Source: an uncultured Candidatus Binatia bacterium
GTDB taxonomy: Bacteria > Desulfobacterota > Binatia > UBA9968 > JAJDTQ01
Length of the DNA stretch: 64,000 nucleotides
Assembly (NCBI GenBank): GCA_965215605.1
Contig: OZ244070.1
Location: 2,144,001 to 2,208,000, forward strand
Direction of reading: 5' to 3'
The notes under the pieces are model-generated. The model had not been told where the DNA came from. It was given only the letters and a program-made list of their open reading frames with translations, and made no database searches. Shown piece after piece: positions 16,254-64,000 of this stretch; the first letter of the stretch is position 1, and the number at the start of each line of letters is the position of its first letter. The position numbers were made by a program, and so were the translations under genes.

Positions 16254-16724
16254 CTACCCTGCCCGCATCCCCGCCAACGCCCCCACGATCGCGTCCGCTT
16301 CCAGCCCCATCTCCAGGATCTCGATGTTCTCGGCGTACTGGTCGGGGTCGATGGCGGCTTTCACGTTGGGCTCGAAGACGTGGTAGGCCGGGAGGCCGAG
16401 CTCCACGCCGGCGAGGGGGCCCGCGTAGGAGGGGTCGCCGGTCGTGACGGTCTCGAACTGGACCTGGCTGCTCTCGGTGGTGGGGGCGCCGAGCAGCACG
16501 ACGATGCCGTCCTTTCCGTATTCTTCAGCGAGTTCTTTTATTCGACCTTGATCCTCAAGGTCCATGGCCCCAGCGGCTGTTCAAACGAAGCACTGGGTGG
16601 CGGCGTACGCGACTTCGCCTCCCAGTCCCGCGATGGCCTGCTCGATGACCGGGGCGGGGACGCCGTCCCGCTCGCCGAGGATGATGAGCTTCTTGCCGTT
16701 GAGGGTGATGGGTTGTGCCGTCAT
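16254..16724 (-). CDS. grdA: Glycine/sarcosine/betaine reductase selenoprotein A (Sec at UGA 16583-16581)
   Basis: MTAQPITLNGKKLIILGERDGVP...TQCFV-U-TAAGAMDLEDQ...ETVTTGDPSYAGPLAGVELGL; CxxU motif; AAGGAG RBS; 156 aa. Confidence 0.93.
16544..16562 (-). promoter_or_regulatory. Bacterial SECIS-like hairpin
   Basis: gaccttga-GGA-tcaaggtc 8-bp perfect stem starting 18 nt after the UGA, with G at the loop start. Confidence 0.7.
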
Positions 16725-16807: not shown

Positions 16808-18262
16808 CTACTGTCGCTTGTCGTTCCGCTCGATCAGCACCGACATGCCGTCCGTCAGCTCGGTCATCTGGCCGAGGAACAGGCTGGCGCGGGCCACCAG
16901 CATGCAGTTCCGGATGGCGCCCGCGGCCATCTCCCGGAGCGCGTGGGGCACGTACACGAAACCCGAGGCAATGTGCCCCTGGGTGGGGGCGTAGCCGCAC
17001 ACCCCCTTGGCGCGCGCAAAACCGGCGATGTCGCTCCGGTCGATCTCCTTGGCCATAGCCAGCATGGCGGCCATCATCTTGTAGTTCCGGGCGGCCACGT
17101 CGCCGGCCTTGGCGGACACCATGATGTCGGGGTTGTGCACCTCGGTCACCACCCGATCGAGCCGGTCGACGCCCCATTCTAGCCGCCGCAACGGCTCCAG
17201 GACAAGCTCCCGGAACTGCTTGTCGAGGGCGGCGCCGGCCTTGACGGGATGCCGTCCGACGGCTTGCAGGTTCACCACCGGGCTCTTGCCGTCGTCGCGG
17301 CCGATCCACACGGCCACCGCGGACAGCGCGTCTTCCAGCACCGGGATGCCTTGTTCGAGGTGGTATAGGGACTTCATCCCGAGCTTGGGAAGCGACCCGC
17401 CGCCCACCACGACCACGTTCTCGAACACGCCGCTGTCCACCAGCGAGGCACCGATGACCATGGCGGGAATGGGCGCGGCGCAGAAGTCCTTGATGTCGAT
17501 GCCGGTGCCGAGATCGCAGCCCGCGAACTCGGCGATGGCCTTGGCCATGTTGCCGCCGCCTCGCTGGTAGCGGTCGCCCACCGCCTCCTCCGAGCAGCTC
17601 AGCACCAGGTCGACGTCGCTCAGGTCAAGACCGTCTACGTGGTTCAGCAGCTCGTGCACGGACAGCGCGCCCGAAACCTTGCAGCAGAGGTTCTCCAGCA
17701 GAACTGTCGCCGAGAGCGCTTCGTCCTCGGAGTGGCCCGTCTTGACCACTCCCACGGGCGCGCCTTCGCCGCCGGCGAAGAGCGGCAGGGAATCGGCGGC
17801 CGCCAGTTCCTTGTCCAGTTGGGCGTCGTCCACAAGCGCCGGCGTGCGGGAGGCCAGCGGCGCCGTGAGCGGCGAGGCCGAGAGCGCGGGATGCATCTCC
17901 TCCCAGAACCGTTCCCGCAGCAGCACGTGCTTGAAGGGGTCCGCGCAGGCCAGCAGGGCGAGGAAACGCCGTTCCTCCATGATGTGCCCGAAAGGTGTGT
18001 CGGCGCCGTCGGCGTCGGCCAGCTTGTCGAACCAAGGCTGCTCCACTTCCCAGAGGCGGGCCGGCGCCTGGCTGCCGATGAACACCTGGTTGGGAAGGTA
18101 ACGGCACGCGTCGTCGTAACCCCACAGCCCCCGCGTCAGATCCGCCAGGAACTCCGGTTTGGCCTTGGCCTCCCGGAACGGCTTGGAGCCGTAACGGACC
18201 AGGCTCGGGGTGTGGGCGAGGGCGGTGGCGGCGCCCTTGATGACGGGTCGGTTCGTCGGCAT
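16808..18262 (-). CDS. grdC: Glycine/sarcosine/betaine reductase component C beta subunit
   Basis: PVIKGA..HTP, LLENLCCKVSG, CSEEAVGDRYQRGGGNMAKA, KLGM, EVHNPDI, GYAPTQGHI, SLFLGQMT. Confidence 0.9.
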   Translation of the reverse strand: MPTNRPVIKGAATALAHTPSLVRYGSKPFREAKAKPEFLADLTRGLWGYDDACRYLPNQVFIGSQAPARLWEVEQPWFDKLADADGADTPFGHIMEERRFLALLACADPFKHVLLRERFWEEMHPALSASPLTAPLASRTPALVDDAQLDKELAAADSLPLFAGGEGAPVGVVKTGHSEDEALSATVLLENLCCKVSGALSVHELLNHVDGLDLSDVDLVLSCSEEAVGDRYQRGGGNMAKAIAEFAGCDLGTGIDIKDFCAAPIPAMVIGASLVDSGVFENVVVVGGGSLPKLGMKSLYHLEQGIPVLEDALSAVAVWIGRDDGKSPVVNLQAVGRHPVKAGAALDKQFRELVLEPLRRLEWGVDRLDRVVTEVHNPDIMVSAKAGDVAARNYKMMAAMLAMAKEIDRSDIAGFARAKGVCGYAPTQGHIASGFVYVPHALREMAAGAIRNCMLVARASLFLGQMTELTDGMSVLIERNDKRQ

Positions 18263-18387
18263 GGAAGCGACCTTATAACGTCCGCGAAGGCCGGGCAAGG
18301 CTGCACGGCAACGCCGTCCCATGACCGTCATTCCGCGAAACAAGCTGTGTCAAAACCCCATCCGAGCGAGGCAACGACCCCCGAAAT

Positions 18388-23510: not shown

Positions 23511-26500
23511 CTAGAGTGGGTTCTCCCGAACATGGTCCGGCTGCAGCGCCGCCGGGTCCTGCTGGGGCTCGGTCGCGGGCGTGGCAGTCCCGGCGGCGTC
23601 CGCCGGCTCGCCGGCGTGGGCCTTCCGCCACACCCGTTCCCGCACCGACGCGTAGAGCACCGGAATCAGCACCAGCGTCACCAGCATGGACGTGATCAGG
23701 CCGCCGATCACCACCCGAGCCATGGGTGCCTGAATCTCGCCGCCTTCGCCCCATGCCAATGCCAGCGGCACCAGTGCGAGGACCGTGGTCAGGGTCGTCA
23801 TGAGGATCGGGCGAAGACGGGTGCGGCCCGCGAGGACCACCGCGTCGACAACGCTCAGGCCCTCCTCGCGCATCTTGAGGTTGATGTAGTCCACCAGCAC
23901 GATGGCGTTGTTCACGACGATGCCCACCAGCAGGATGATGCCGATGTAGGAGTTGACGTTGAGGCTCGTCCCGGTCACGTGGAGCGATGCGAGCACGCCG
24001 ATGGCGGCGAAGGGAACCGCGAACATGATCACCAGCGGATCGAGCAGGCGCTCGAACTGGCCCGCCATGACCATGTAGACCATGAGCAACGCAAGGAGCA
24101 GGCCGATCCGCAGCTCGCCGAAGGCCTTCTGCTGTTCCTCGAAGTCCCCGCCCACCTGGAGGACCATGCCCTGCGGCAGCGGGATCTGTGCCAGCGCCGC
24201 CTGAATCTCGGCCACGGCGCCGGCCATGTCGCGTCCCGAGACCTCGCCGGAGATGGACACCACCCGTTCCTGGTTGAGGCGCTGGATCGACATGGGTCCG
24301 CGGCGTTCCTCTAGCCGGACCAGGTTCTTGAGCGACAGCACCCGGCCCGAGCCGTCGGAGACGCTCTGATCCAGTAGCCCGTCCAGCTCGGCGCGGTCGT
24401 CGCCGCCGAGACGAACGCGCACGTCGTACTCGTTGCCGCCCTCGCGGTAGAACGTCGCCCGTATGCCCCCCAGGCTCGCTTGCAGGCCGCGGGCGATGGT
24501 CTCCACCGGTATGCCGAGGCTTGCCGCCCGCTCCCGGTCCACGTGAATGCCCATTTCTGGCTGTCCGGCCTGCCGGCTGATGCGGACCCCGGCGACCCCG
24601 TCAACGCCGTCCATGGTGTCCTTCACCTGGCGCGCGACCCGCTGTAGCTGGTCCAGGTCGTGACCGCGCACCTTCACGTCGAGGTTGTCGTTGTCGGTGA
24701 ATCCGAGGCGTCTGAAGATCCACAGCCCGGAGCTCGCGCGTACGCGGGCGCGCATCCCGGGAACCTCGCTGACCCGCCGCCGCAGGACTCTGACGATGTC
24801 CTGATCGGACCGTTCCCGGGTGTTCCTGGGCCCCAGCCACACGTACACGCGCCCGTTGTTCTTGCCGCGGGCGCGCCAACCGAACTGGCCGAAGCGGGTG
24901 AAGTTCCGGTGCGGCTCGGTGACCTCCTGTTTCACGATGGCCTCGAGTTGCCGGAAGGCGCGGTCGGTTTCCTCGATCTTCGATCCGGCCTCGGTCTCCG
25001 CGATGATGATCACGTTGCCCTCGTCGGCACGGGGCATGAACTCGCTGGCAATGCCCTGGTAGAGGAAATAGCTGCTTGAAAGCAGGATCGCCGCGGCCGC
25101 CACCACGGTGAAGCGGTGGCGCAGGCTCCACCCCAGCAGTCCCTGGTAGGCCTTGTCCAGACCCGTTTGGGAACTCGAACCCGCGCGCGCGAGACGCGAC
25201 AGGAAGCGCCCGGTGCGCGCACGGTCCGGCCGGCCCAGGAGATGGTGCGCCAGCACGGGGACCACGGTGAGGGCCACCACCAGGGAGGCCGCGAGGGAGA
25301 AGAACACGACCCACGCGAGCTGTTGGAAGAGGATGCCCGCGGAGCCGGGGACGAAGATCAGGGGCAGAAACACCACCACGGTGGTCAGGGTGGACGCGGT
25401 GATGGCTCCCGCCACCTCGCGCGTGCCCCTGAGGACGGCCTCCCGGCGCTCGGTGCTGGCCTCGTGGTGCCGGAAGATGTTCTCCAGCACCACCACGGAG
25501 TTGTCCAGCAAGAGCCCTATTCCCAGGGCGAGACCGCCGAAGGAGATGATGTTGATGCTGAAGCCCTGGAAGTACATGAGCGCGAAGGTGGCGACGATGG
25601 AGATGGGGATGGCGGTGCCGATGACCACCGTGCTGCGCACGCTGCGCAGGAAGAACAGCAGCACGGCCAGGGCCAGCAGGCCGCCCCAGACCGCGGCCAG
25701 GGTCACGTTGTCCACCGCGTTGCGGATGTAGTGCGCGTTCTCGCGCAGCACGGTTACCCGGATGGCGGGGAGCTCCCGATTGATACCGTCGATGGCCTGT
25801 TTCACCCGGTCCACCACCGCGATGGTATTGGCGGAAGGCTGCCGCCGCACGGAGATGACCACGGCGTGGGCCCCATCCATCCGCACCGCGTGGTCCAGGT
25901 CCTTGAAGGAGTCCTCCACCTGTCCGAGGTCCTTGACATGGATGGGGATTCCGTCGCGGGAGGCCACCACCGTGTTGCGCAGTTGATCGAGATCGGTGAA
26001 CTCGCCCAAGGTCCGTACCGATACCTCCAGGTGGGCCCGGCCGAGATTGCCGGCGGGCAGGTTGATGTTGCTCGCCCGCAGCGCCCGGACCACCTGGTCC
26101 ACCGAGAGATTGAACGCCTTGAGCCGGTCCAGGGACAGGTGGACGTGGATCTCGCGTTCCAGTCCGCCGCGCACGTCCGCCGCGGCCACGCCGGCGACCC
26201 GTTCCAGTCGGTAGCGGACCTCCTGCTCCACGAAGCTCCGCAGCGCCACCGGGTCCATCTGTCCCGACACGCCGATGAACATGATCGGCGACGCGTTGAC
26301 GTCGTACTTGGAAACCACCGGGGCCTCGGCTCCCGGAGGAAGATCGTCCCGGATGCGGTCGATCCGTGCGCGTATGTCGCTCACCGCCACTTCCAGGTCC
26401 TTGTTCCAGCCGAAGCTCACCCGGACCTGGCTGCGGCCTTCGACGGAGATGGAGGTCATGTCCTCCACGCCTTCCACGGAGCTCACCGCCTTTTCGACCG

Positions 26501-26696
26501 GCACCGTCACCAGCGTCTCCATCTCCAGCGGCCCCACGTTGCCGTAGTTGGTCGAGATGGTGACCCTGGGGAAGGTGATCTCGGGCATGAGATCCACCGG
26601 GATCTTGAGAAACGACACCACCCCGAGGATCACGACGATCAGCGCCGCCATGCAGGTGGCCACCGGGCGTCTGAGACAAAGCGCCGTGAGATTCAT
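23511..26696 (-). CDS. RND efflux permease (AcrB/MdtB-like)
   Basis: RRPVAT, GLLLDNSVVVLENI, GIVVNNAIVLVD, RLRPILMTT; 1061 aa. Confidence 0.95.
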   Translation of the reverse strand: MNLTALCLRRPVATCMAALIVVILGVVSFLKIPVDLMPEITFPRVTISTNYGNVGPLEMETLVTVPVEKAVSSVEGVEDMTSISVEGRSQVRVSFGWNKDLEVAVSDIRARIDRIRDDLPPGAEAPVVSKYDVNASPIMFIGVSGQMDPVALRSFVEQEVRYRLERVAGVAAADVRGGLEREIHVHLSLDRLKAFNLSVDQVVRALRASNINLPAGNLGRAHLEVSVRTLGEFTDLDQLRNTVVASRDGIPIHVKDLGQVEDSFKDLDHAVRMDGAHAVVISVRRQPSANTIAVVDRVKQAIDGINRELPAIRVTVLRENAHYIRNAVDNVTLAAVWGGLLALAVLLFFLRSVRSTVVIGTAIPISIVATFALMYFQGFSINIISFGGLALGIGLLLDNSVVVLENIFRHHEASTERREAVLRGTREVAGAITASTLTTVVVFLPLIFVPGSAGILFQQLAWVVFFSLAASLVVALTVVPVLAHHLLGRPDRARTGRFLSRLARAGSSSQTGLDKAYQGLLGWSLRHRFTVVAAAAILLSSSYFLYQGIASEFMPRADEGNVIIIAETEAGSKIEETDRAFRQLEAIVKQEVTEPHRNFTRFGQFGWRARGKNNGRVYVWLGPRNTRERSDQDIVRVLRRRVSEVPGMRARVRASSGLWIFRRLGFTDNDNLDVKVRGHDLDQLQRVARQVKDTMDGVDGVAGVRISRQAGQPEMGIHVDRERAASLGIPVETIARGLQASLGGIRATFYREGGNEYDVRVRLGGDDRAELDGLLDQSVSDGSGRVLSLKNLVRLEERRGPMSIQRLNQERVVSISGEVSGRDMAGAVAEIQAALAQIPLPQGMVLQVGGDFEEQQKAFGELRIGLLLALLMVYMVMAGQFERLLDPLVIMFAVPFAAIGVLASLHVTGTSLNVNSYIGIILLVGIVVNNAIVLVDYINLKMREEGLSVVDAVVLAGRTRLRPILMTTLTTVLALVPLALAWGEGGEIQAPMARVVIGGLITSMLVTLVLIPVLYASVRERVWRKAHAGEPADAAGTATPATEPQQDPAALQPDHVRENPL

Positions 26697-27994
26697 TGGT
26701 TCCGCGTCCTTTCCGCTCGGCCGCGACCCCCGCCGGGCCGGCCTTCCCGCCCGGCTCCCCGCCGCCCTCGGCGGGAACCCGCGCGCGGGCCGTCACCAGC
26801 GATCCGGATCCGCTGGCCGTGGCGCACGAGGCTGCTGCCCAGGGTGACGACCTGATCACCTCTGCGCAGGTCTCCCGTCACCTCCACCCAACCGCCGTTC
26901 CGGAGACCCGGCGTGACCTTCACCCGCTCCACCTTGCTGCCTTCGTCCGTCAGCCTGAACACGCCGTACCCCGCCCTGGTCTTCACCGGTGAGGCTTCCG
27001 GAACCATCAGAACGCCGCGTTTGCGCTCCACCACGATGGTGGTACGCGCAAACATGCCGGGCTTGAGCACGCCGTCGGGGTTGTCGAGCTCGATCTCCGC
27101 CTCGGCGGTGCGAGTCTGCGGGTTGAGGATCGGCGACATGCGCGTGATGGTGCCGTTGAACCGCTCGTCCGGGTAGGCGTCGACCTTGACGGCCACCGGC
27201 TGTCCCAGGGAAACTCTGCGGTAGTCCCCCTCCACCACGGCAATGCCGACCTTGACCCGGTCGATGTCCACGACCTCGAACAAGGGGGTGCTGGCACTCA
27301 CGAGGGCGCCGCGGTCCACCATGCGGCGGCTCACGTGACCCGCGAACGGCGAGCGCACCTCGGTGTGCGCCAGGCGGATGCGGGCGTTGTCCAGGCGCGC
27401 CTGCATTTGCAGCATCTGGGCCTTGGTCAGGTCGACCTGGGATTCGGCGGACAGGACCTGGGTCTCCAGGTTGTTCACCTCCTCCCGAGACACCAGGTCC
27501 TTGCCCGCCAGGACCTTGACGTTCTGCCGGCGCCGTTCGAGGTTTTCCAGTTCCGCCTGGCGGCCCTTGAGCGTGGCCTGGGCCACGCGAAGCGATGCCT
27601 GCGCCTCGCGCAAGTCTTCCGCCAGCTCATCCTTCGCGAGCTGCCCCAGCAGTTGGCCCTCCTTGACGCGCTCGCCCACGGTGACGAACAGCTTGGCGAC
27701 CCGGCCGGAGGTCTTCGGCGCAATGGTGACCGCCGCGTTGGGTGCCAACGAGCCCACGTAGCTCAACGTCGCCTCGACGTTCCCCATCCGTACCTTTGCG
27801 GTTTTGACGGTGACCGCGCGGCCCGCGCCACGGCGTCGCCCTTGGTTGGCCTGTCCGGAATTGCGCTGTTCCGGCTTGTTCCTGGCTGCGCCGATTTCAA
27901 ACGGCCCGAGGCCGAGTGGAGGCCCGATGCCGAGGTAGTAGAGCACGCCGACGGCAATCGCCAGGACGACGAGAGTGGCAGCCACGCGTTTCAC
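26693..27994 (-). CDS. RND periplasmic adaptor (MFP)
   Basis: N-terminal TM, PKTSGRV, SPFAG, LKPGMFA. Confidence 0.92.
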   Translation of the reverse strand: MKRVAATLVVLAIAVGVLYYLGIGPPLGLGPFEIGAARNKPEQRNSGQANQGRRRGAGRAVTVKTAKVRMGNVEATLSYVGSLAPNAAVTIAPKTSGRVAKLFVTVGERVKEGQLLGQLAKDELAEDLREAQASLRVAQATLKGRQAELENLERRRQNVKVLAGKDLVSREEVNNLETQVLSAESQVDLTKAQMLQMQARLDNARIRLAHTEVRSPFAGHVSRRMVDRGALVSASTPLFEVVDIDRVKVGIAVVEGDYRRVSLGQPVAVKVDAYPDERFNGTITRMSPILNPQTRTAEAEIELDNPDGVLKPGMFARTTIVVERKRGVLMVPEASPVKTRAGYGVFRLTDEGSKVERVKVTPGLRNGGWVEVTGDLRRGDQVVTLGSSLVRHGQRIRIAGDGPRAGSRRGRRGAGREGRPGGGRGRAERTRNQ

Positions 27995-54441: not shown

Positions 54442-54628
54442 GAGTGGTCGAAGTCAGCCCCACGGATGAACCCGTATCCGTTCACCGTTCAATCGATGAG
54501 GTTCAGGACATCGAGTTCGCTAATATGCCGAATTCGCAGTTGCCCTATATGGCGCAGTTATGCTATGTATTATTCGAGTTTAGGCAATGGTGTGGTATTC
54601 TGCCTGCCTCAGAAAGGGAGGGATTGTC

Positions 54629-55105
54629 ATGAAGAGCTCATTGCAAAGGCGGCCGGTGTGGAGACTGGCCCTGGTTGCCGTGCTGGCCGTGTCGTTCGTG
54701 ATAGCGATGAATTCAGGAACGCCGTTTGCGACCACCCAGATTTCCACCGACGCCGACGAGGGAGACAAGATGACCTTCACCGTCAACCTTGGCGTTGCTC
54801 CCAATGGCTATTCCATCCGTTATACCTTCAAGACCGAGGACGGCACCGCCGAAGCGGGAAAGGACTACACCGCGCGTACGGGAAAGGTGGTCTTCGCTTC
54901 GGGTGAGAGCACCAAGACGGTGGACGTGTGGACATCGACAGACCAGATTGAGGAGGATGACGAATACTTCACTTTGAAATTGTACAATATCGAAGCGAAA
55001 GGATTCTCGGCGGCGCACTCCGGGTGGGTCTCGTTCCGGAACCAGCTCTATGGCGTTCCGAATGAGCAGTCGCTTAACGGCGAGATCAAGGACGTTGCGC
55101 CGTGA
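54629..55105 (+). CDS. Secreted single Calx-beta domain protein
   Basis: Signal peptide; EGD.MTFTV.L, TEDGTAEAGKDY, GKVVFASGE.TKTV.V, D..EEDDEYFTLKL. Confidence 0.85.
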   Translation: MKSSLQRRPVWRLALVAVLAVSFVIAMNSGTPFATTQISTDADEGDKMTFTVNLGVAPNGYSIRYTFKTEDGTAEAGKDYTARTGKVVFASGESTKTVDVWTSTDQIEEDDEYFTLKLYNIEAKGFSAAHSGWVSFRNQLYGVPNEQSLNGEIKDVAP

Positions 55106-55253
55106 AATGGAGGCCAGGATCTGATCGGTTGGGGTTGAAACGGCCTTGAGCCGGTCGCCGCAACAGGCGACCCCGGGCACGGCGAAGAAGTTTCCCGGGT
55201 TCCCTGGGACCGCCGTCGCAACAGAAGACCTTAGCGAGCGAGGAGGGAGGATC

Positions 55254-55772
55254 ATGAGACAGGAATCGAACAGGAAAACCGAATGGACCGCATGGCGCGC
55301 CGCCCTTGCCGGCGTCGTACTGTTGGGGGGTGCGGCGCTCGTGGCGCCGCAAGCGGCCGACGCCGTGGACGCCGGCACAACCGAGGGCGACACGATGGAG
55401 TTCACCGTCGAACTCGGGGCTGCACCGAACGGCTGGGCGGTGCGCTACAAGTACAAGACGGAAGACGCCGCGGCCGTCAAGGGCGAGGATTACGAAGAGA
55501 CCACCGGCACCGTGACCTTCAACTCGGGGGTCAAGACCAAGAAGATCTCTGTGGACACGATTGACGACAGCGAGGAAGAAGACCCGGAAGTCTTCAAGCT
55601 CAAGCTCTATGACCAGGAGGTCAACGGGCTCTACCGCGACGTCACCGGATGGGTCACCCCGACGTCCAGCATCCGGTCCATGCCGCGCACGATGACGTTG
55701 AAGGGCCAGATCCAGGACAACGACCAAACGGTCAAGGCGGATTGCGGGAACGCGGGTCAGTATTGCCAGTGA
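55254..55772 (+). CDS. Secreted single Calx-beta domain protein (paralog)
   Basis: Signal peptide; EGDTMEFTV, TEDAAAVKGEDY, GTVTFNSG, DDSEEEDPEVFKLKL; C-terminal CGNAGQYC. Confidence 0.85.
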   Translation: MRQESNRKTEWTAWRAALAGVVLLGGAALVAPQAADAVDAGTTEGDTMEFTVELGAAPNGWAVRYKYKTEDAAAVKGEDYEETTGTVTFNSGVKTKKISVDTIDDSEEEDPEVFKLKLYDQEVNGLYRDVTGWVTPTSSIRSMPRTMTLKGQIQDNDQTVKADCGNAGQYCQ

Positions 55773-55805
55773 CCGGGGACCAGGGATCAAGTACAAGGGA
55801 GACAA

Positions 55806-56633
55806 GTGATGAATACCGATCGAACCTCAACCGGGCGCTTGGCGATTGCCCTTGCAGCGGTCGTGCTGGCCGCCGCCCTTGCCGCAGCCGGGCCCGCCCG
55901 CGCCCAGAACGCCCCTACATATGGCGACTGTGCTGATGCGTGGTACCAGAGCGACGCCTCCGATCATTGCCCGGCACGCGGCACCCAATTCTGGTTTGAC
56001 ACCCCGAACGGACAGTGCAGCGTCACGGCCAGGTGCAGGAAGTTGAATGGCGTGCCATCAACCCAGCAAACTGTCACCGGCGATCTGGATGACATGCGCG
56101 ATCTGGTGAGTTGCGACGGCAAGCTCAAAATCGGCTCTTGCCTCGACGCTACTCAACAAGCCGCCCTGGAGACAGCATGCAAGGATGCGTGGGATAACAG
56201 CGATGCCAGCCAGAGATGCGGTTCGTCCCGCGGATCCCACAGCGTGTCGACCTATCAAGGCGTGCAATGTCATGTCTCGACCTCCTGCGGGACCCCGGCG
56301 GTGTCGGCGTCCTTCTACGGGTCTACCGACACTGTGAAACAGCTCGATTACTGCAACAACGAGTTGTCCACCTCCTGCCCCACGGTCGAGAAATGCACGA
56401 GCGCATGGAATGCGAGTTCGGCCAAAGTTACCTGTAACTATTCCGGCGCCTTCAGCACCCAAGTCGGAGTGGATTCGGGACAGTGCTCCATAAAGACCCA
56501 TTGCGAAAGACGGGTTGACGATCCATTGGGGAAGACTGGGGGAGTCCTCGCAGTTGAGACCTCGTACAAGGGGGACCTGGGACAGGTGCAAAACCTCAAG
56601 AACTGCCATGGGACACTCAAGACATCCTGCTGA
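55806..56633 (+). CDS. Secreted Cys-rich protein, 3 x 6-Cys modules (paralog 1)
   Basis: Signal peptide ending ARA-Q; three CxxAWxxSxAxxxC...C..C...LxxCxxxLxxSC repeats. Confidence 0.85.
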   Translation: MMNTDRTSTGRLAIALAAVVLAAALAAAGPARAQNAPTYGDCADAWYQSDASDHCPARGTQFWFDTPNGQCSVTARCRKLNGVPSTQQTVTGDLDDMRDLVSCDGKLKIGSCLDATQQAALETACKDAWDNSDASQRCGSSRGSHSVSTYQGVQCHVSTSCGTPAVSASFYGSTDTVKQLDYCNNELSTSCPTVEKCTSAWNASSAKVTCNYSGAFSTQVGVDSGQCSIKTHCERRVDDPLGKTGGVLAVETSYKGDLGQVQNLKNCHGTLKTSC

Positions 56634-56771
56634 GGTCCCGGTTTCTCCCGGTTTCGCGGGTCGCATGACATCGATCGGGTCGCACGTCTTCGGTCGCATA
56701 TCCCGGAGCGGGAAAGCTCGCCATGACCGGTCGGATTGTCGATCGGTGACCGGGCAGAAAGGAAGGAAGCG

Positions 56772-57638
56772 ATGAAGACCGATGGAACCCAGACCGGGCT
56801 GCGGGCCTCTTCCGGATCGACCGGGCGCTTGGCGATTGCCCTTGCAGCGGTCGTGCTGGCCGCCGCCCTTGCCGCAGCCGGCCCCGCCCGCGCCCAGAAC
56901 GCCCAGGACGGCCCGACGCGGGCCGAGTGCCTTGACGCGTGGGACGAGAGCGACGCCTCCGGTTCCTGTCCCTATTCCAGCAACCAGTTCTGGATGACGG
57001 CTTCGAACGGAGAGTGCAGCGTCACGACCAGGTGCAGGAAGTCGAATGGCAGGGCATCAGGGATGCAAAATGTCACCGGCGATCTGGATGACATGCGCGA
57101 TCTGGTGAGTTGCGACGGCACGCTCAAAATCAGCTCTTGCCTCTCCGCTACTGAACAAGCCGCCCTGGCGACAGCATGCGAGGAGGCGTGGGATGACAGC
57201 GACGCCAGCCAGCAGTGCGGTTCGTCCTACGGATCCCACAGCGTGTCGATATCAAACCGGCAATGTCATGTCTCGACCTCCTGCGGGACCCTGGCGGTGG
57301 CAGCGTCCTTCTACGGATCGCCCGACGATGTGAAACAGCTCGATTACTGCAACAGCGAGTTGTCCACCTCTTGTCCCGCCCCCGTGACGGTCGAGAACTG
57401 CAAGAGCGCATGGAATGCGAGCGACGCCAGTAATACCTGCAACGTTACAGGATATGCCGATACCAGGCCGGTCGCGGTGGATTCGGGACAATGCACCATG
57501 AGGGCCAGGTGCAGAAGATGGAGTACGGTATTCCCCGGCAACCCGGAGATCTCCCCGCAGTACGGCGATTTCAGGGGGAGTGTGGAACAGGTGGAAGACC
57601 TCAAGAACTGCCATGGGGCGCTTAAGACCTCCTGCTGA
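56772..57638 (+). CDS. Secreted Cys-rich protein, 3 x 6-Cys modules (paralog 2)
   Basis: Same architecture; ATG after a purine-rich RBS. Confidence 0.85.
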   Translation: MKTDGTQTGLRASSGSTGRLAIALAAVVLAAALAAAGPARAQNAQDGPTRAECLDAWDESDASGSCPYSSNQFWMTASNGECSVTTRCRKSNGRASGMQNVTGDLDDMRDLVSCDGTLKISSCLSATEQAALATACEEAWDDSDASQQCGSSYGSHSVSISNRQCHVSTSCGTLAVAASFYGSPDDVKQLDYCNSELSTSCPAPVTVENCKSAWNASDASNTCNVTGYADTRPVAVDSGQCTMRARCRRWSTVFPGNPEISPQYGDFRGSVEQVEDLKNCHGALKTSC

Positions 57639-57688
57639 GGTCCCGGTTTCGCGGACCGGGCCCCCGCGCCCCGGAATGAGGAAAGGCC

Positions 57689-58531
57689 ATGAGACAGGAC
57701 TCGAACGGGAAAACCGCACAAACCGCATGGCGCGCCGCCCTTGCCGGCGTCGTGCTGGCCGCTGCCCTTGTCGCAGCCGGCCCCGCCCGCGCCCAGAACG
57801 CGCAGGACGGCCCGACGCGGGCCGAGTGCCTTGACGCGTGGGGCGAGAGCGACGCCTCCGCGCATTGCCCATTTTCCAGCAACCAGTTCTGGATGACGGC
57901 GTCGAACGGAGAGTGCAGCGTCACGACCAGGTGCCGGAAATCGGATGGCTGGGCATCGCATATGCAAACCGTCACCGGCGATCTGGATGACATGCGCGAT
58001 CTGGTGAGTTGCAACGGCGTGCTCAAAGTCAGCTCCTGCCTCTCCGCTGCCGAACAAACCGCTTTGGCGACAGCCTGCGAGGAGGCGTGGGACGACAGCG
58101 ATGCCAGCCAGAAATGCGGTTCGTCCTACGGATCCCACAGCGTGTCGATATCAGGCCAGCAGTGTCAGGTCTCGACCTCCTGCGGGACCCTGGCGGTGGC
58201 AGCGTCCTTCTACGGATCGCCCGACGATGTGAAACAGCTCGATTACTGCAACAGCGAGTTGTCCACCTCTTGCCCCATCCCCGTAACGCTCGAGAACTGC
58301 AAGAGCGCCTGGAATGCGAGCGATGCCAGCGATACCTGTAACGTTACAGGATATGCCGATACCAGGCCGGTCGCGGTGGATTCGGGACAATGCACCATGA
58401 GGGCCAGGTGCAGAAGATGGAGCCCACGGTGGGTCGGCGAGGTCTCTCCGGGGTATAGCGATTTCAAGGGGAGTGTCGAACAGGTGGAAGCCCTCAAGAA
58501 TTGCGACGGGCGCCTCAAGACATCCTGCTGA
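57689..58531 (+). CDS. Secreted Cys-rich protein, 3 x 6-Cys modules (paralog 3)
   Basis: Near-identical to paralog 2 over long tracts; leader shared with the Calx-beta gene at 55254. Confidence 0.85.
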   Translation: MRQDSNGKTAQTAWRAALAGVVLAAALVAAGPARAQNAQDGPTRAECLDAWGESDASAHCPFSSNQFWMTASNGECSVTTRCRKSDGWASHMQTVTGDLDDMRDLVSCNGVLKVSSCLSAAEQTALATACEEAWDDSDASQKCGSSYGSHSVSISGQQCQVSTSCGTLAVAASFYGSPDDVKQLDYCNSELSTSCPIPVTLENCKSAWNASDASDTCNVTGYADTRPVAVDSGQCTMRARCRRWSPRWVGEVSPGYSDFKGSVEQVEALKNCDGRLKTSC

Positions 58532-58604: not shown

Positions 58605-59804
58605 CTACTTGCCCTGGAGTCCGGCGATGGGATCGAGCCTGGATGCCTGGTGGGCGGGCTGGAACCCGAAGAACAGGCCGACCGCCACCGCCGTGCCGAG
58701 GCCGCTGGCCACGGAGAGCCCCGAGATCAGGAAGTCCCAATCGGTGAAGCGGCAGATCGTCCAGGTTGCCGCCAGGCCGAGCGCCACGCCAAGCACGCCA
58801 CCGGCGACTGTCAGGATGACGGATTCGATGAGAAACTGGCTCCTTATGTCCCGTTGCCGCGCGCCCAGGGCCCGGCGGATGGCGATTTCCGCGCGCCGCT
58901 CGGCCACGGACACGAGCATGATGTTCATGATCCCGATCCCGCCGACGATCAGCGAGATGCTGCCCACCGCGCCCAGCAACAAGGTGAAAATGCCCATCTG
59001 CGCCTCCATCCGGGCGATCAGCTCCTTCGCGGTGACGATATCGACGCCGAGATCGGGCGCGCGCTCGCGGAAATAGGACCGGACGTCCTCCACCGCCGCC
59101 TCGTAATGGACGCCGACGCCGGATCGGGCGACGATGACCTCGATTCCGGGGTCGGGGGCGATCCGCTGCGCCGTGGTTATCGGGACGAATATGGATTTGT
59201 CCGCGTTCACCTGGAACGGCAGTGCATAGCTCTCCCTCTTTCTGTCCAGCACGCCCACAATGGTGAAGAGAACCTCATCGACCTCGATGAGCGCCCCCAG
59301 AAGGCGGTCCGCCCCCTCCGCGCGCATTTTCTCCGCGACTTCGGCGCCGATGACGCACCAGTATCTGTCGGTATCCAGGTTCGAAACGAACCGGCCCTCT
59401 TGCAGCGTCAGCTTGTTCACGCTCGCGAAGGATCGGGTGACGCCCTGAACCGCGCCCCGCCCGACCTCCCGGCCGGCGAAGCGGAACGTCCCGCGCCCCG
59501 ATATCCTGGGCGCCGCCTCGACGATCGACGGGACCACCGCCGCCAGTTGCAGGGCGTCCGGGAGGCCAATCACGGCCCTTCCACCAGCATCCGACTTGCG
59601 GATGACAACGATGTCGGTGCCGAGCGCCTCGAATTGCTTGCGGGCCTGCCCCTTGGCGATCTCGCCGAGCGAGACCATCGCAATGACCGAGGAGATGCCG
59701 ATCATGACGCCGACCAGGCCCAGCACCGTGCGCAGCCTCGCCCGGCGCAGGCTGTTGGCCGCCTCGCGGGCATTGGCCGCAATGACCTGGAAGGTTCTCG
59801 ACAT
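58605..59804 (-). CDS. MacB/FtsX-like ABC permease
   Basis: RTVLGLVGVMIGISSVIAMVSLG, GGIGIMNIMLVSVAERRAEIAIRRALGA, PAHQASRLDPI. Confidence 0.92.
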   Translation of the reverse strand: MSRTFQVIAANAREAANSLRRARLRTVLGLVGVMIGISSVIAMVSLGEIAKGQARKQFEALGTDIVVIRKSDAGGRAVIGLPDALQLAAVVPSIVEAAPRISGRGTFRFAGREVGRGAVQGVTRSFASVNKLTLQEGRFVSNLDTDRYWCVIGAEVAEKMRAEGADRLLGALIEVDEVLFTIVGVLDRKRESYALPFQVNADKSIFVPITTAQRIAPDPGIEVIVARSGVGVHYEAAVEDVRSYFRERAPDLGVDIVTAKELIARMEAQMGIFTLLLGAVGSISLIVGGIGIMNIMLVSVAERRAEIAIRRALGARQRDIRSQFLIESVILTVAGGVLGVALGLAATWTICRFTDWDFLISGLSVASGLGTAVAVGLFFGFQPAHQASRLDPIAGLQGK

Positions 59805-59818
59805 GCCGGACGCCCGCG

Positions 59819-60523
59819 TCACGCCCCGGACGCCGCCGCGGCGCCGGGCCCGGCTCCTGGCTCGAAGAGCCTGCCGTCGCGAATGCGCGTCCGCCGCGCG
59901 CACTGGTCTGCCACCGACGGGTCGTGCGTGATAATCAGGATCGTGATGCCGCGCTCCTCGTTCAGCCGCCGTAGCAGCGCCATCACCTCGCGGGCCGTGT
60001 CGATATCCAGCGCACCGGTCGGCTCGTCGGCGAGCAGCAGCGCCGGCTTGCCCACCAGCGCCCGGGCGATGGCGACCCTCTGTTTCTGCCCACCGGAAAG
60101 CTGGTCCGGCCGGTGGCCGGTCCGGTCCGCCATACCGACGCGCTCCAGTATCTCCTGCGCGCGGCGGCGCATTTCCAGCCGCCCGGCACCCCGATAGACC
60201 AGCGGCAGGCAGACATTCTCCAATGCGGTCAGTTGCGGCAGCAGGTGGAAGGACTGGAACACGAAACCGATATGCCGGTTCCGGAGCGCGGACAGCTCGT
60301 TGTCGCGGAGCCCGGAGACATCGCGCCCGTCGAGGACACAGGCGCCCGAGGTCGGGCGGTCCAACAGACCGATAATGTTCATGAGGGTTGTCTTGCCGCT
60401 GCCCGAAGGTCCCATGATCGACATCAGGTCACCCGCATCGACCTCCAGATCGACGCCCCGCAGAACCTCGGTCGTGACCGGCCCGACCCGATAGGATCTG
60501 CGGATGTCGGTCAGCCTCAGCAT
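59819..60523 (-). CDS. MacB/LolD-like ABC ATPase
   Basis: GPSGSGKT, IGFVFQSFHL, LSGGQKQR, ADEPTGALD. Confidence 0.95.
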   Translation of the reverse strand: MLRLTDIRRSYRVGPVTTEVLRGVDLEVDAGDLMSIMGPSGSGKTTLMNIIGLLDRPTSGACVLDGRDVSGLRDNELSALRNRHIGFVFQSFHLLPQLTALENVCLPLVYRGAGRLEMRRRAQEILERVGMADRTGHRPDQLSGGQKQRVAIARALVGKPALLLADEPTGALDIDTAREVMALLRRLNEERGITILIITHDPSVADQCARRTRIRDGRLFEPGAGPGAAAASGA

Positions 60524-60566: not shown

Positions 60567-62333
60567 TCATCGGACGAGGACGACCTTGTCGCCAGGCGAA
60601 AGGCCCTTCACCACCTCGACCGAATCGAGCGTGGTGAGGCCGAGTTCGACCGCGCGCCGCTCCGCGCCGCCGCCGTCGGCGAGGACACGCAGCCAAGCCT
60701 TGCCGTTCCCCTGTTCCACTGCGCCGATCGGCACCATCAGGGCCGCCGGGCGGTGGTGGACGACGATCGTGACATAGGCCGACATGCCGACCCGCAGCCG
60801 GTCACGCGCCTCCGTTCCCAGCCTGTCCAGCGTGACGACGACCTCGAATTGCGGCGCGCCGCGCCGTCGCGTTCTGAGATCCGCCCTCGGTGAGACACGG
60901 GTCACGGCGCCCGCGATCTGCAGGCCGGGAAATCCGGGGCCGGTAATCCAGGCCTGCTGGCCGGCCTCGACCTTCCTCACGTCCACCTCGTCCACGCTGG
61001 TGACGACGGAGAGGCGCTCCAGGTCCGCGATGCTCAGCATCAACTCTCCCTGTCCCACCGGCCTGCCCTTCGTCAGGGGCCGGGCCCTCGGGCCCTCCGC
61101 CGCCATGACGACCCCGGCGATCGGCGCCCGGACCCGCGCCAGGTCCAGCTTTTCCTCATGCACGCGCAGGCGGTCCTCGGCCGTCCGGGCCTCCAGACGC
61201 GCCACCCGCCGCGCTTCTTCGCCGCCCTTTGCCTTCACCGCCTCCAGCTCCCGCCGGGCCTCCTCGATATCCAGGGCCCGGTTCTGCCGCTGCCGCTGCG
61301 CATCTTCTTGCTGCGAGGCGGGAACGAGCCCCTGCTCCAGAAGGAAGGCGGTCCTGTCGAGATGCCGCTCCGCATCGTCGAACGCAATCTTCGCCCGCCG
61401 CAAGGCTTGGCGGGCGCGCGCCATGTCGGCGCTGTTCTCCCATTCCTCGAGCTCGACAAGCCGGTCGTGCGCCTTGATATGCTCGACTTGGGCACGCCTG
61501 TGGTCCGCGGCGAGCTGGCCCGTGTCGAGAGCGACCAGCGGATCGCCCGCCGCCACCCGATCCCCGGGGGCGGCATGCAATGCGCTTACATGGCTTTCGA
61601 TCGGGCTGACGATCTCGGCGACGCGGCCCGGTGCCAGATGGCCCCTGAGCGCGATGGTGGACCGGAATTCGCGGGGCTGCACCGTCACGGCCGGCAGCGC
61701 GCCTGGACCGCCGGCCTCCTCTACTCCCGGGCCGGCGTCCAGCGCCGCAGCGGCGCTGAACAGATCCAACGGCCGGACATACCAGGCGCCGATGGCGAGA
61801 AACACCACCATGACGAACAGCATCGCCGCGCCGCGCGCCGTGCGCACGCGCTTCGTCATCGCCAAAAGCGCTTCATTCCGAGCCTCGAGGTCGCGATAGG
61901 CGCTCTGGAGCTCACCGAGCTGCGTTTCGATGACCGCCGCCTGGCGCAGCTCCGTCTCGCGCAGCTCACGGACTTCGGTGATGTCGGAGACGACAACGAT
62001 CACCGCCACCCGCTCCTCTCCCACCATGAGGCAGGAGGTTGTGACGGACAGCGAGCGATGCGCCTCGCCGACCCGGACCCGCGTGACGCGCCGCGCGATG
62101 TCCCCGCGTTCGGCAACGGCGTCGAGGACAATCTGGGTGAACTCGTCGAAACCCTCGAACGCGATGAAGATCTGCCCGAAGGAACGCCCGGGCGCCTTAT
62201 CGGGGTCGAGCCCGAACATCCGGCAGAACGCGGCGTTGGCCATCCTGACCGCCCCGTCGAAACCGATGACGATCACCCCGTCGGACAGGTTCTCCAGAAG
62301 CGTGTGGTAAATGTCGGGGTCGCGGTCGGTCAT
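60567..62333 (-). CDS. PAS domain-periplasmic adaptor (MacA/HlyD-like) fusion
   Basis: LLENLSDGVIVIGFDGAVRMAN..F..MFG...VVSDITE PAS; coiled coil; TM; MFP motifs VRAPIAGVV, VDEVDV, LRVGMSA, GLSPGD. Confidence 0.85.
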   Translation of the reverse strand: MTDRDPDIYHTLLENLSDGVIVIGFDGAVRMANAAFCRMFGLDPDKAPGRSFGQIFIAFEGFDEFTQIVLDAVAERGDIARRVTRVRVGEAHRSLSVTTSCLMVGEERVAVIVVVSDITEVRELRETELRQAAVIETQLGELQSAYRDLEARNEALLAMTKRVRTARGAAMLFVMVVFLAIGAWYVRPLDLFSAAAALDAGPGVEEAGGPGALPAVTVQPREFRSTIALRGHLAPGRVAEIVSPIESHVSALHAAPGDRVAAGDPLVALDTGQLAADHRRAQVEHIKAHDRLVELEEWENSADMARARQALRRAKIAFDDAERHLDRTAFLLEQGLVPASQQEDAQRQRQNRALDIEEARRELEAVKAKGGEEARRVARLEARTAEDRLRVHEEKLDLARVRAPIAGVVMAAEGPRARPLTKGRPVGQGELMLSIADLERLSVVTSVDEVDVRKVEAGQQAWITGPGFPGLQIAGAVTRVSPRADLRTRRRGAPQFEVVVTLDRLGTEARDRLRVGMSAYVTIVVHHRPAALMVPIGAVEQGNGKAWLRVLADGGGAERRAVELGLTTLDSVEVVKGLSPGDKVVLVR

Positions 62334-63859
62334 TGCGGCGCCGCCTCAAGCCGGACGTCCCAGCGGTCCAGCACGCGTCCGGTGGTCCGGTCGAGCCGCG
62401 TCAGCGCAGCGAGCCAGGAGAGGATGGCGTCCGCTTCGGCCTGTTCCGCCTGGACCAGCTCTTCCTCGGCCGACGCCACCTCGAAGGTGGACGACAGGCC
62501 CTGGCCGAATTTTGCCTCCTCCACCGCCAGGTTCTGCTCCGCCAGTACGCGCGCGTCGCGCGCCAGTTCGGTCAGGCGGAGGCCCACCTCGACATCGTTC
62601 AGCGCCTGGCGCAGCGCCGTGCCGATCGACTCGCGCAATTCGACGACGCTTCTCTCCGCCTTCTTCAGCGCGTTGCGGGCCCTCAAGCGTGCGAGCTCAG
62701 GCGTCCGGTCGTTCAGCGGAACAGTGGCGTCTAACCGCACCTCACTATCCGGCCGGCCAGTGTCGCTATGCATCCACCGGAAGCTGAGAGCAACATCCGG
62801 CAACAGGTTGTTGCGGGCTACCGTCAACGCGATCCTGGCGGTCTCGACCCCGAGCCCGGCCTGGAGATAATCGACGCGGTTTTGCAGTGCTTCTTCGAGC
62901 GTCGGCGCAACGGCGGCGTCCTGCTGCCCGGCCTTCAACTCCTCCAGCGGACGGATGCGGATCCGGCTGTCAAGCTCCAGAATATCGATCAGGGCAAATT
63001 GCGCCGCTTCCAGGCGGTTCCGCGCCCGGACCAGCGCCAATTCCCGGGTGGCGATCGCCGCCTCGGACCGCCCCGCTTCGCGCTCGGCCACGCGCCCCGC
63101 GCCGATCAGCGCGCGCGTCGCCTCAAGCTGTTCGCGGGCGCGCTGCAATGAAGCTTCGCCGATTTCCACTTGCCGCACCGCGCCGATCAGCGCGCGATAC
63201 GCCCCGATCACGGCGACGACCAGATCCGCCGCAGTCTGGCGGAAGGCGAGGATGTCGATCCGTTCTTTCAGCCGCGCCTGCCGCACCGTTGCACTGTCGA
63301 TATCGGCCCAAGCGCCTTTCAGCAATGGCTGGGAAAAGCTGAAGGTTTGCGAACCGGCATCGTCGAACTTCCTCGACAGCCTTTCGTCCCAGCCGAGCGC
63401 GAACGCGCCGCCGGTGGGAACGCGCAGGCTCATCCGAGCGCCGAAGCCCGCCTTGTCGTCTTGCCGGTCCCTGCTCGCGAAGGGGCCGACGGTAACCTGA
63501 GGACTCCAGCGCTCCTCGGCCACATCCAGCGAAAACCTCTGCACTTCCCGGTCGAGCCGGCTGTTGAGAAGCGGCCGGTTGCGCGCCAGCGCCAGCCCGA
63601 TCGCGTCGCGCAGCGTCAGGTCGCAAACACTCGCGGCGCAGCCAGGGGGATCGTCCGCCGTCGCGGGCGTCTGGGCGGCCGCGGGGACCAGTGCCAAAAA
63701 GCACAGAACCGAGACGATTGCGAGGAAAAGCCCCGTCAGTCCCGGCGATGAGGCAAATGCAGTCGAAGCCCGGACGCGGCCCGCCGCCCCCGGTTGCCCG
63801 GACGATCCAACCGGCCTTGCCCAAGCTGTCGTGCGACGAACCTCAACTCCGTCGATCAC
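62330..63859 (-). CDS. TolC family outer membrane protein
   Basis: LTLRDAIGLALARN, FSQPLLKG, LLPDV, E..KF..GLSSTFEV; start uncertain (GTG 63859, frame open to 63988). Confidence 0.88.
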   Translation of the reverse strand: MIDGVEVRRTTAWARPVGSSGQPGAAGRVRASTAFASSPGLTGLFLAIVSVLCFLALVPAAAQTPATADDPPGCAASVCDLTLRDAIGLALARNRPLLNSRLDREVQRFSLDVAEERWSPQVTVGPFASRDRQDDKAGFGARMSLRVPTGGAFALGWDERLSRKFDDAGSQTFSFSQPLLKGAWADIDSATVRQARLKERIDILAFRQTAADLVVAVIGAYRALIGAVRQVEIGEASLQRAREQLEATRALIGAGRVAEREAGRSEAAIATRELALVRARNRLEAAQFALIDILELDSRIRIRPLEELKAGQQDAAVAPTLEEALQNRVDYLQAGLGVETARIALTVARNNLLPDVALSFRWMHSDTGRPDSEVRLDATVPLNDRTPELARLRARNALKKAERSVVELRESIGTALRQALNDVEVGLRLTELARDARVLAEQNLAVEEAKFGQGLSSTFEVASAEEELVQAEQAEADAILSWLAALTRLDRTTGRVLDRWDVRLEAAPQ

Positions 63860-64000
63860 GTCCCCCTCTGCGAGCCTCCAGTGACAGGCGAGATCAGTTC
63901 CCCAGCATCCCGCCTCCAGCAAATACCCGATTTCAGCGGGGCATGTCAATGTCAGCCCAGATCGTGTGAAAACTCGACGTCCCATCAACGGAAGCGTTCG

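Follow-up and report, generated by a model that had tools for sequence, protein, structure and literature searches.

What is a sensory domain doing at the cytoplasmic end of an exporter adaptor? The question is raised by a gene on a 64,000-nucleotide stretch of DNA (the window) from an uncultured Candidatus Binatia bacterium of the Desulfobacterota (GenBank assembly GCA_965215605.1, contig OZ244070.1, positions 2,144,001 to 2,208,000). Its predicted product joins a PAS domain, a coiled-coil linker, one transmembrane (TM) helix and a periplasmic membrane-fusion protein (adaptor), and it is the second gene of a minus-strand operon encoding an outer-membrane factor of the TolC family (OMP), the PAS-adaptor, an ABC ATPase and a MacB-type permease, in that order (Table 1). 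An earlier interpretation based on the letters alone (the sequence-only reading) had described this architecture and proposed that a cytoplasmic ligand or redox cue could control assembly or gating of the pump. Profile searches, structure prediction and comparison of related loci bear out the architecture, which recurs in many assemblies, and on these grounds we consider it reasonably probable that a cytoplasmic cue sensed by the PAS domain modulates adaptor-dependent ATPase activation of a MacAB-TolC-like exporter.

Domain composition of the adaptor

The PAS assignment was the most exposed part of the sequence-only reading, which would have been abandoned had the N-terminus neither scored nor folded as PAS. 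It does both. In Pfam, PAS_4 matches residues 13-123 with 41.3 bits (cut-off 23.1), and PAS_8 (36.4 vs 21.8) and PAS (31.7 vs 22.6) also pass; in NCBIfam, the sensory_box model TIGR00229 reaches 45.3 bits (cut-off 22.9) over residues 7-126. As had been noticed, the fold closes with a DITE motif, at residues 117-120. AlphaFold2 modeling of the full-length protein on a 32-sequence alignment gave a mean pLDDT of 74.7 and a pTM of 0.34, and the N-terminal 175 residues modeled alone gave a pLDDT of 80.9. Both models contain a five-stranded PAS fold (strands 19-24, 28-32, 79-88, 91-104 and 107-117; helices 34-40, 52-60 and 64-75; pLDDT ~80-88) followed by a single unbroken helix, residues 119-186, that spans the linker and the TM segment. 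A Foldseek search with the PAS model returned 422 PDB matches at E ≤ 0.001, the top ones listed being PAS and LOV domains; matches from WalK, short LOV proteins, LOV-HK chimeras, DosP, FixL and NifL (E 9e-8 to 3e-6) carry C-terminal signaling helices.

Among the invariant or near-invariant columns of the PAS core in the family alignments, we found no conserved His or Cys and no recognizable cofactor motif. A LOV- or heme-type PAS domain was ruled out for want of a conserved Cys or His, the comparison being made with positions that we take to be the LOV cysteine and heme histidine sites. The redox cue suggested earlier thus receives no specific support, there being no conserved residue for heme or a flavin adduct.

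The remaining parts of the protein also proved to be as first described. The hydrophobic stretch at residues ~168-186 is preceded by four basic residues read from the sequence (K161, R162, R164 and R167), which, by the positive-inside rule, places the N-terminus in the cytoplasm. The adaptor body that follows scores above the curated cut-offs of TIGR01730 (RND_mfp, 125 vs 94.9 bits), HlyD_D23 (55.9 vs 30) and HlyD_3 (53.3 vs 22.2). Its model comprises an alpha-hairpin at 272-397 (helices 272-333 and 339-397) and beta domains, with low confidence at 235-246 and 405-439, and Foldseek matches it to MacA, AcrA, MexA, ZneB and EmrA (E 3e-20 to 1e-13). The corresponding TM-scores are low (0.27 query-normalized, 0.44 target-normalized) because of the extra N-terminus and the flexible arrangement of the domains. 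Thus, with curated cut-offs passed on both sides, the protein is a member of the PAS superfamily and of the adaptor superfamily. Its start is also well defined, since the open frame around the gene amounts to 592 codons only, without internal stops, and the ATG is the first possible start.

Distribution of the architecture and exchange of input modules

Could the fusion be an artifact, that is, a chimera in which assembly or gene calling joined a PAS gene to an adaptor gene? Restriction to this one assembly had been named beforehand as a sign of it. The chance of this is negligible, nothing was seen that speaks for it, and we reject the explanation, because the same fusion was found in many assemblies. 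PAS Pfam accessions are carried at full length by 118 of the 120 listed clusters (90% identity level; 56-100% identity to the query). All 12 closely related genome loci, which bear the titles of alpha- and gammaproteobacterial metagenome-assembled genomes (MAGs; 56-92% identity), keep the order OMP, PAS-adaptor, ATPase and permease, with the caveat that in L007 the OMP match covers ~300 residues only. The same four-gene order is kept at 10 of 10 distant loci (~30% identity) from Syntrophorhabdaceae, Geobacter, Trichlorobacter, Desulfobacteraceae and Geobacteraceae MAGs, and an even sample of the phylum yielded full-length matches in four of 200 other genomes, one of them with two copies. Within its own genome the PAS-adaptor is single; four further adaptor paralogs match only its periplasmic part.

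A phmmer search of 1.84 billion representatives (50%-identity clusters) extended the family further, with 391 matches at E ≤ 1e-30. When the best 150 of these were scanned for domains, about 108 carried PAS. In the 80-sequence alignment (query included, 28-56% identity), PAS was present in 78 and HlyD_3 in all 80; the next 50 representatives contained PAS in 26 cases, GAF in one and HlyD in 46; and the remaining 21, which were atypical, comprised 15 GAF-adaptors, three PAS+GAF forms, two PAS forms and one adaptor with a cyclic nucleotide-binding (cNMP-binding) domain. Judging by these matches, PAS, GAF, PAS+GAF and cNMP-binding input modules are interchangeable on one chassis of linker, TM helix and adaptor. 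Since cNMP-binding and GAF domains are small-molecule-binding modules, their presence argues for an input function of the N-terminus. The family as a whole is large, ancient and patchily distributed, and is widespread in uncultured Proteobacteria and Desulfobacterota.

Several members have unusual arrangements. In one representative, P0131 (1064 aa), a single polypeptide joins a PAS-adaptor directly to a MacB periplasmic core domain, the ATPase being absent from between them; it represents either a naturally occurring fusion of adaptor and permease or read-through in gene calling. One Rhodospirillales MAG contig (L011 and L012, matches ~11.85 kb apart) carries two full copies of the operon with IS66-family and other transposase genes between them, and L007 contains a second copy (L007:14880-15764), partial and inverted, that consists of the OMP C-terminus and the start of the PAS-adaptor.

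Length and conservation of the linker

Another important question is whether the segment between the PAS domain and the membrane is a mere spacer or has the properties of a signaling helix. We counted residues between aligned anchor positions over the same 80 sequences. From D117, the near-invariant Asp of the DIT motif, to the membrane-proximal R167 there are 50 residues in 53 of the 80 sequences, 43 in 23, 49 in three and 36 in one; thus, the length of the linker changes almost exclusively in whole heptads. Y146 lies 21 residues before R167 in 77 of the 80, and the TM span from R167 to P188 has the same length in 70. The periplasmic tether that follows the TM helix (188-231) varies freely, from 34 to 59 residues.

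The internal pattern is that of a coiled coil. Heptad positions a and d are taken by I118, V121, A132, I135, L139, L142, Y146, L149, N153, L156, T160, V163 and R167, and in the register with Y146 at a, hydrophobic a/d positions continue without interruption from 132 to 163, with a near-invariant Asn153 at a. A buried Asn at position a favors parallel dimers. The motif LQxAYRxxE is conserved at a fixed distance from the membrane. Mean pairwise identity among close relatives is 0.70 in the linker vs 0.59 in the PAS domain and 0.61 in the adaptor body (0.59-0.62 in the other regions), and among remote relatives it is 0.38 vs 0.34 and 0.35, so that, by alignment, the linker is the most conserved region of the protein. 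Its continuous helix, a/d pattern and stepwise lengths uphold the signaling-type coiled coil recognized earlier. A length quantized in heptads, together with a DIT motif, characterizes PAS linkers that transmit signals.

The closest likeness of this part is to the PAS modules of sensor kinases and similar proteins (WalK, the LOV-HK chimeras 4GCZ and 8A52, FixL, DosP and NifL), which have the same PAS fold, the DIT motif, a helix running into a coiled coil and linker lengths in heptads. The difference lies in the output, with a TM helix and a periplasmic pump adaptor in place of a kinase, cyclase or phosphodiesterase, and in the direction, as the signal would run from the cytoplasm toward the membrane.

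The exporter and its known relatives

The transporter encoded with the PAS-adaptor is MacB-type, with the ATPase and permease split into two genes as in DevCA and LolCDE. In NCBIfam, the ATPase best matches the ATPase half at the N-terminus of the MacB model NF007826 (E 1e-78), and the permease matches residues 242-645 of the same model; at 265.2 and 167.2 bits, respectively, both remain below its equivalog cut-off of 966 bits. The permease start was placed at the Met where its relatives begin: the listed open reading frame (ORF) runs to 59903, relatives align from residue 34, and 399-aa ORFs are also found in L011 and L013. The OMP matches TIGR01844 (E 2.2e-21) below the cut-off of that model, and its 5' end is uncertain, the listed TTG start giving 552 aa while relatives align only from residue ~14-122. 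The TGA stop of the OMP gene overlaps the ATG of the PAS-adaptor gene (ATGA).

Among solved structures, the best match of the adaptor is E. coli MacA (PDB 9QGY, 5NIK and 3FPP), both by sequence (9qgy_G, E 2.3e-11) and by fold (9qgy_G, E 3.4e-20; also 5nik_D, 4dk0 and 3fpp). In both systems the adaptor is anchored by a TM helix at its N-terminus and is partnered by a MacB-type permease and a duct of the TolC family. MacA, however, has no folded cytoplasmic domain, whereas here ~165 residues of PAS and coiled coil precede the TM helix, and E. coli MacB is a fused ATPase-permease. With 59.9 bits against the MacA equivalog cut-off of 342 (NF008606), the adaptor is MacA-like without being a MacA ortholog. 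The DevBCA-HgdD glycolipid exporter of Anabaena shares with it a MacB-type pump adaptor and a separate ATPase (DevA) and permease (DevC); the DevB model TIGR02971 scores 58.1 vs a cut-off of 129, the DevA and DevC models are also below their cut-offs, and the excerpts of PMC5985334 mention no PAS domain in DevB. E. coli HlyD resembles it in layout, with a cytoplasmic segment at the N-terminus followed by a single TM helix and a long hairpin, and differs in its short non-PAS tail and in its partner, a canonical ABC exporter that draws cargo from the cytoplasm (TIGR01843 scores 48.9 here vs a cut-off of 208.65). The adaptor is therefore not a DevB or HlyD ortholog. The known part of the protein is an adaptor like MacA, DevB and HlyD; the new part is a sensor-kinase-type input grafted onto it.

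The expectation that the cytoplasmic tail of MacA/HlyD adaptors is usually short was roughly right and needs one qualification: according to excerpts of a review, adaptors of ABC transporters, the major facilitator superfamily and type I secretion systems "have sizable cytoplasmic domains" (PMC8277102). The nearest printed precedent that we found for a sensor-adaptor fusion is a group of GAF-HlyD-biotin_lipoyl proteins from SecA_DEAD/peptidase_M50 loci, for which a 2015 comparative genomics study suggested a "regulatory and sensory role" (PMC4452313, excerpts). They also place a cytoplasmic sensor-type domain on a HlyD-family adaptor, and GAF-adaptors occur in the present family too; likened by description only, they belong to another locus type, carry GAF instead of PAS, and have no MacB-type ATPase or permease described in those excerpts. 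Our search, which covered literature outside subscription-only sources, found no publication, experimental work included, on the PAS-adaptor form; in PMC10434189 and PMC11218460 the terms are present only as separate gene-table entries or in unrelated text.

Proposed mode of action and alternatives

What, then, could the sensor control? In the reading that we favor, the cytoplasmic N-terminus of the adaptor would have been built out into a PAS sensor on a rigid signaling helix that runs into the TM helix. The PAS domains, probably as parallel dimers (three per adaptor hexamer), would bind or sense a cytoplasmic cue; a change in the helix (rotation, piston or register shift, as in PAS-linked sensor kinases) would be relayed to the TM helix, and the altered TM helix would modulate stimulation of the ABC ATPase and productive assembly of the pump, the step controlled by adaptor N-termini in MacA, DevB and HlyD. 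The importance of this region is documented for all three in the excerpts consulted: removal of MacA's cytoplasmic region or of its TM helix abolishes MacB ATPase stimulation and resistance, deletion of the DevB N-terminus blocks export while association is kept (both PMC5985334), and HlyD without its N-terminal 45 residues neither recruits TolC nor activates HlyB (PMC4446572). More generally, the cytoplasmic domains of adaptors are described as essential yet structurally little known (PMC8277102, excerpts). MacB is reported to transport no substrate across the inner membrane, using ATP to drive work in the periplasm (PMC5985334, excerpts). As MacB-type pumps take periplasmic cargo, the PAS domain would be a regulatory valve and not a cargo-binding site. 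The exchange of sensors together with the heptad-quantized linker strengthens the case for post-translational control by a cytoplasmic cue.

Several points weigh against this reading. A PAS core lacking conserved His or Cys and a recognizable cofactor motif may bind nothing, and many PAS domains act only as dimerization modules. A dimeric coiled coil at the membrane must also be reconciled with six adaptor TM helices around a MacB dimer. In the second set of representatives, 24 of 50 have no PAS match, some of them being truncated gene calls or relatives of 350-450 aa that lack a sensor; because such sensor-less relatives exist, the chassis does not require the sensor. The family occurs sporadically, as its presence in four of the 200 other sampled genomes of the phylum indicates, and the full-length model has the low pTM given above, with adaptor segments of low confidence. 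Prediction of a complex from the ATPase and PAS-linker alignments gave no answer (score 0.00 in two runs) and says nothing either way on contact. A search for RNA sequencing runs covering the operon listed none.

Would a scaffold explain the same data? A ligand-independent PAS-coiled-coil module might pre-pair adaptor protomers, or tether the separate ATPase, and so stabilize the pump. The commonness of PAS dimers is established knowledge and suits this explanation, as does the lack of His, Cys or a cofactor motif in the core; moreover, the ATPase is a polypeptide of its own here, in contrast to E. coli MacB with its fused halves, so that further tethering in the cytoplasm could help, and the linker motif, conserved at a constant depth beneath the membrane, would also serve as a docking site. 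We nevertheless regard it as possible, if unlikely, because replacement of PAS by a GAF or cNMP-binding domain is hard to square with a pure scaffold, cNMP-binding domains being ligand receptors, because exact heptad steps and the DIT motif are typical of linkers that transmit signals, and because the sensor-less relatives show that the chassis manages without the domain.

Reversal of the direction of signaling is improbable. The adaptor would then report periplasmic occupancy or assembly, and the PAS domain would be the output that recruits or releases a cytoplasmic partner, for instance a partner-switching kinase, a phosphatase or a transcription factor, although N-terminal PAS, GAF and cNMP modules ahead of a signaling helix are, by established knowledge, typically placed as inputs. 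A possible partner is seen at the Syntrophorhabdaceae locus L020, where an RsbW-like HATPase_c_2 protein is encoded directly upstream of the OMP (L020:2885-3391, plus strand) and a HAMP-SpoIIE phosphatase lies downstream (L020:10600-11760, minus strand); these partner-switching genes were not found at L025, L034 or L035, and no partner gene is conserved across the loci examined. The idea does find a parallel in the suggestion that MacA signals the presence of periplasmic substrate to the cytoplasmic nucleotide-binding domains (PMC5985334, excerpts). Less probable still is recognition of a cytoplasmic cargo or precursor by the PAS domain, triggering recruitment of the outer-membrane duct as in HlyD. 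The HlyD N-terminus is indeed needed for TolC recruitment (PMC4446572, excerpts), and cytoplasmic regions of adaptors are called essential for substrate recognition and assembly (PMC8277102, excerpts), but the transporter here is of the MacB type (MacB_PCD and FtsX), which moves no substrate across the inner membrane (PMC5985334, excerpts), and the candidate cargo proteins encoded nearby bear Sec-type signal peptides.

Control by a PAS-sensed cue also agrees with what is missing around the operon. The earlier observation that the window holds no kinase or regulator held when 39 other ORFs were scanned strictly against NCBIfam (E ≤ 1e-30), and flanking genes scanned with Pfam, in this genome and at the other loci examined, revealed no kinase or response regulator conserved beside the operon. 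The flanks themselves differ among the own genome, L011, L013, L015, L016, L020, L025, L034 and L035. The absence of a conserved adjoining kinase or regulator fits a self-contained, one-component design.

Neighboring genes and candidate cargo

Convergent with the operon lies a plus-strand cluster of two Calx-beta and three Cys-rich genes (Table 1). Each member of the Cys-rich trio has three internal Cys-rich repeats and belongs to no Pfam family. Outside the window, immediately upstream of the OMP, there is a third gene for a small Calx-beta protein (L018:4288-4875, minus strand), so that in this 4.06-Mb genome three of the ~6 small Calx-beta ORFs and all three Cys-rich paralogs sit at the pump operon. 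A nearly identical N-terminal leader of ~25 residues is common to one Cys-rich and two Calx-beta proteins whose mature domains are unrelated.

Table 1 Coordinates of the PAS-adaptor gene, its parts and the adjoining genes in the window
Feature	Position	Strand	Basis or remarks
PAS-linker-TM-adaptor gene	60567..62333	(-)	ORF list: 588 aa + stop, ATG start
Cytoplasmic PAS domain, residues ~7-118	61980..62315	(-)	Pfam, NCBIfam, AlphaFold2, Foldseek
Signaling-type linker helix (predicted), residues 119-167	61833..61979	(-)	AlphaFold2 continuous helix, alignment counts, heptad register
Single TM helix, residues ~168-186, N-terminus cytoplasmic	61776..61832	(-)	Hydrophobic stretch, helix continuous in model
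Periplasmic adaptor (membrane-fusion protein) body, residues ~212-588	60570..61700	(-)	HlyD_D23, HlyD_3, TIGR01730, model, Foldseek
TolC-family outer-membrane factor (OMP), operon gene 1	62330..63988	(-)	Pfam PF02321 OEP, 119.7 bits
ABC ATPase, 234 aa, operon gene 3, polypeptide separate from permease	59819..60523	(-)	PF00005, 125.1 bits
MacB-type (type VII ABC) permease, 399 aa, operon gene 4	58605..59804	(-)	MacB_PCD 106.3 bits, FtsX 73.8 bits
Gene cluster convergent with the operon	54587..58531	(+)	Two Calx-beta and three Cys-rich genes; candidate cargo
Two small Calx-beta proteins (one domain each) with signal peptides	54587..55105, 55146..55772	(+)	Pfam Calx-beta, 53.9 and 49.5 bits
Paralogous secreted Cys-rich proteins, ~275-300 aa, three tandem genes	55806..56633, 56736..57638, 57689..58531	(+)	ORF list

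The same Calx-beta and Cys-rich neighbors flank the operon in L006-L010 and L017, and Calx-beta neighbors recur in L006-L011, L014, L016 and L017, these close loci not being independent of each other; L013 showed no Calx-beta neighbors, nor did the Desulfobacterota loci examined. In the latter, the genes after the permease encode small secreted-type proteins of other kinds: L020 has a chagasin-family inhibitor and L035 a He_PIG Ig-domain protein. In the gammaproteobacterial version of the operon at L016, an adjoining 1441-aa protein (L016:80-4405, minus strand) combines an M10 peptidase with RTX repeats and Calx-beta domains, and a small Calx-beta protein is encoded nearby (L016:11178-11774).

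On the basis of the neighborhood alone, the Sec-dependent Calx-beta and Cys-rich proteins are candidate cargo of the exporter in this lineage. The idea is plausible because export of periplasmic proteins by MacB-type pumps is documented for two cases, the enterotoxin STII, which is disulfide-bonded, and dispersin, a beta-sheet protein of 10 kDa (PMC5985334, excerpts). The neighbors resemble the small Sec-delivered, disulfide-bonded or beta-sheet cargo of the Aat system (dispersin/CexE) and of MacAB (STII) described there, the link on the present side being one of neighborhood only. Taken a step further, the operons might be ligand-gated secretion machines in which the PAS, GAF or cNMP-binding domain reads a metabolite or second messenger of the cytoplasm and, by way of a phase-locked helix, licenses export from the periplasm of small Sec-delivered proteins, in this lineage the Calx-beta (beta-sandwich) and Cys-rich proteins, by the MacB-type pump; we put this forward as a tentative proposal that is rather unlikely to hold as a whole.

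Some further genes of the region were noted. Beyond the 3' end of the window, upstream of the operon in the same genome (L018:4930-14600), there are an ORF of 368 aa with no known function, a SNF2/PLD-domain helicase and an Eco57I-type methylase, together with two transposase/integrase genes, an island-like and possibly mobile context. The window also contains an ordinary second efflux system, an RND permease (23511..26696) and an RND adaptor without a sensor domain (26693..27994), both on the minus strand. Finally, the ORF at 16254..16565 (minus strand) matches the profile of glycine/sarcosine/betaine reductase selenoprotein A, but only from position 47 on, and adjoins the gene for component C subunit beta (16808..18343, minus strand); it probably starts after an in-frame TGA selenocysteine codon, in which case the true gene would be longer.

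Implications

Control of tripartite pumps is usually assumed to be transcriptional. If the proposed mode of action is true, the sensor built into the adaptor would give an envelope-spanning machine a post-translational switch, and the family would represent a new output class for PAS, GAF and cNMP signaling, namely a transmembrane adaptor instead of an enzyme or a DNA-binding domain. If, in addition, the operons act in ligand-gated secretion, the switch would amount to a one-component valve, acting post-translationally, on a secretion system. The natural, modular PAS/GAF/cNMP handle and the heptad-locked linker provide a ready means to perturb the coupling between adaptor and ATPase. Thus, the family would make testable how the cytoplasmic and TM region of an adaptor controls the MacB ATPase, a process whose structural basis is called "unclear" in the excerpts of PMC5985334.

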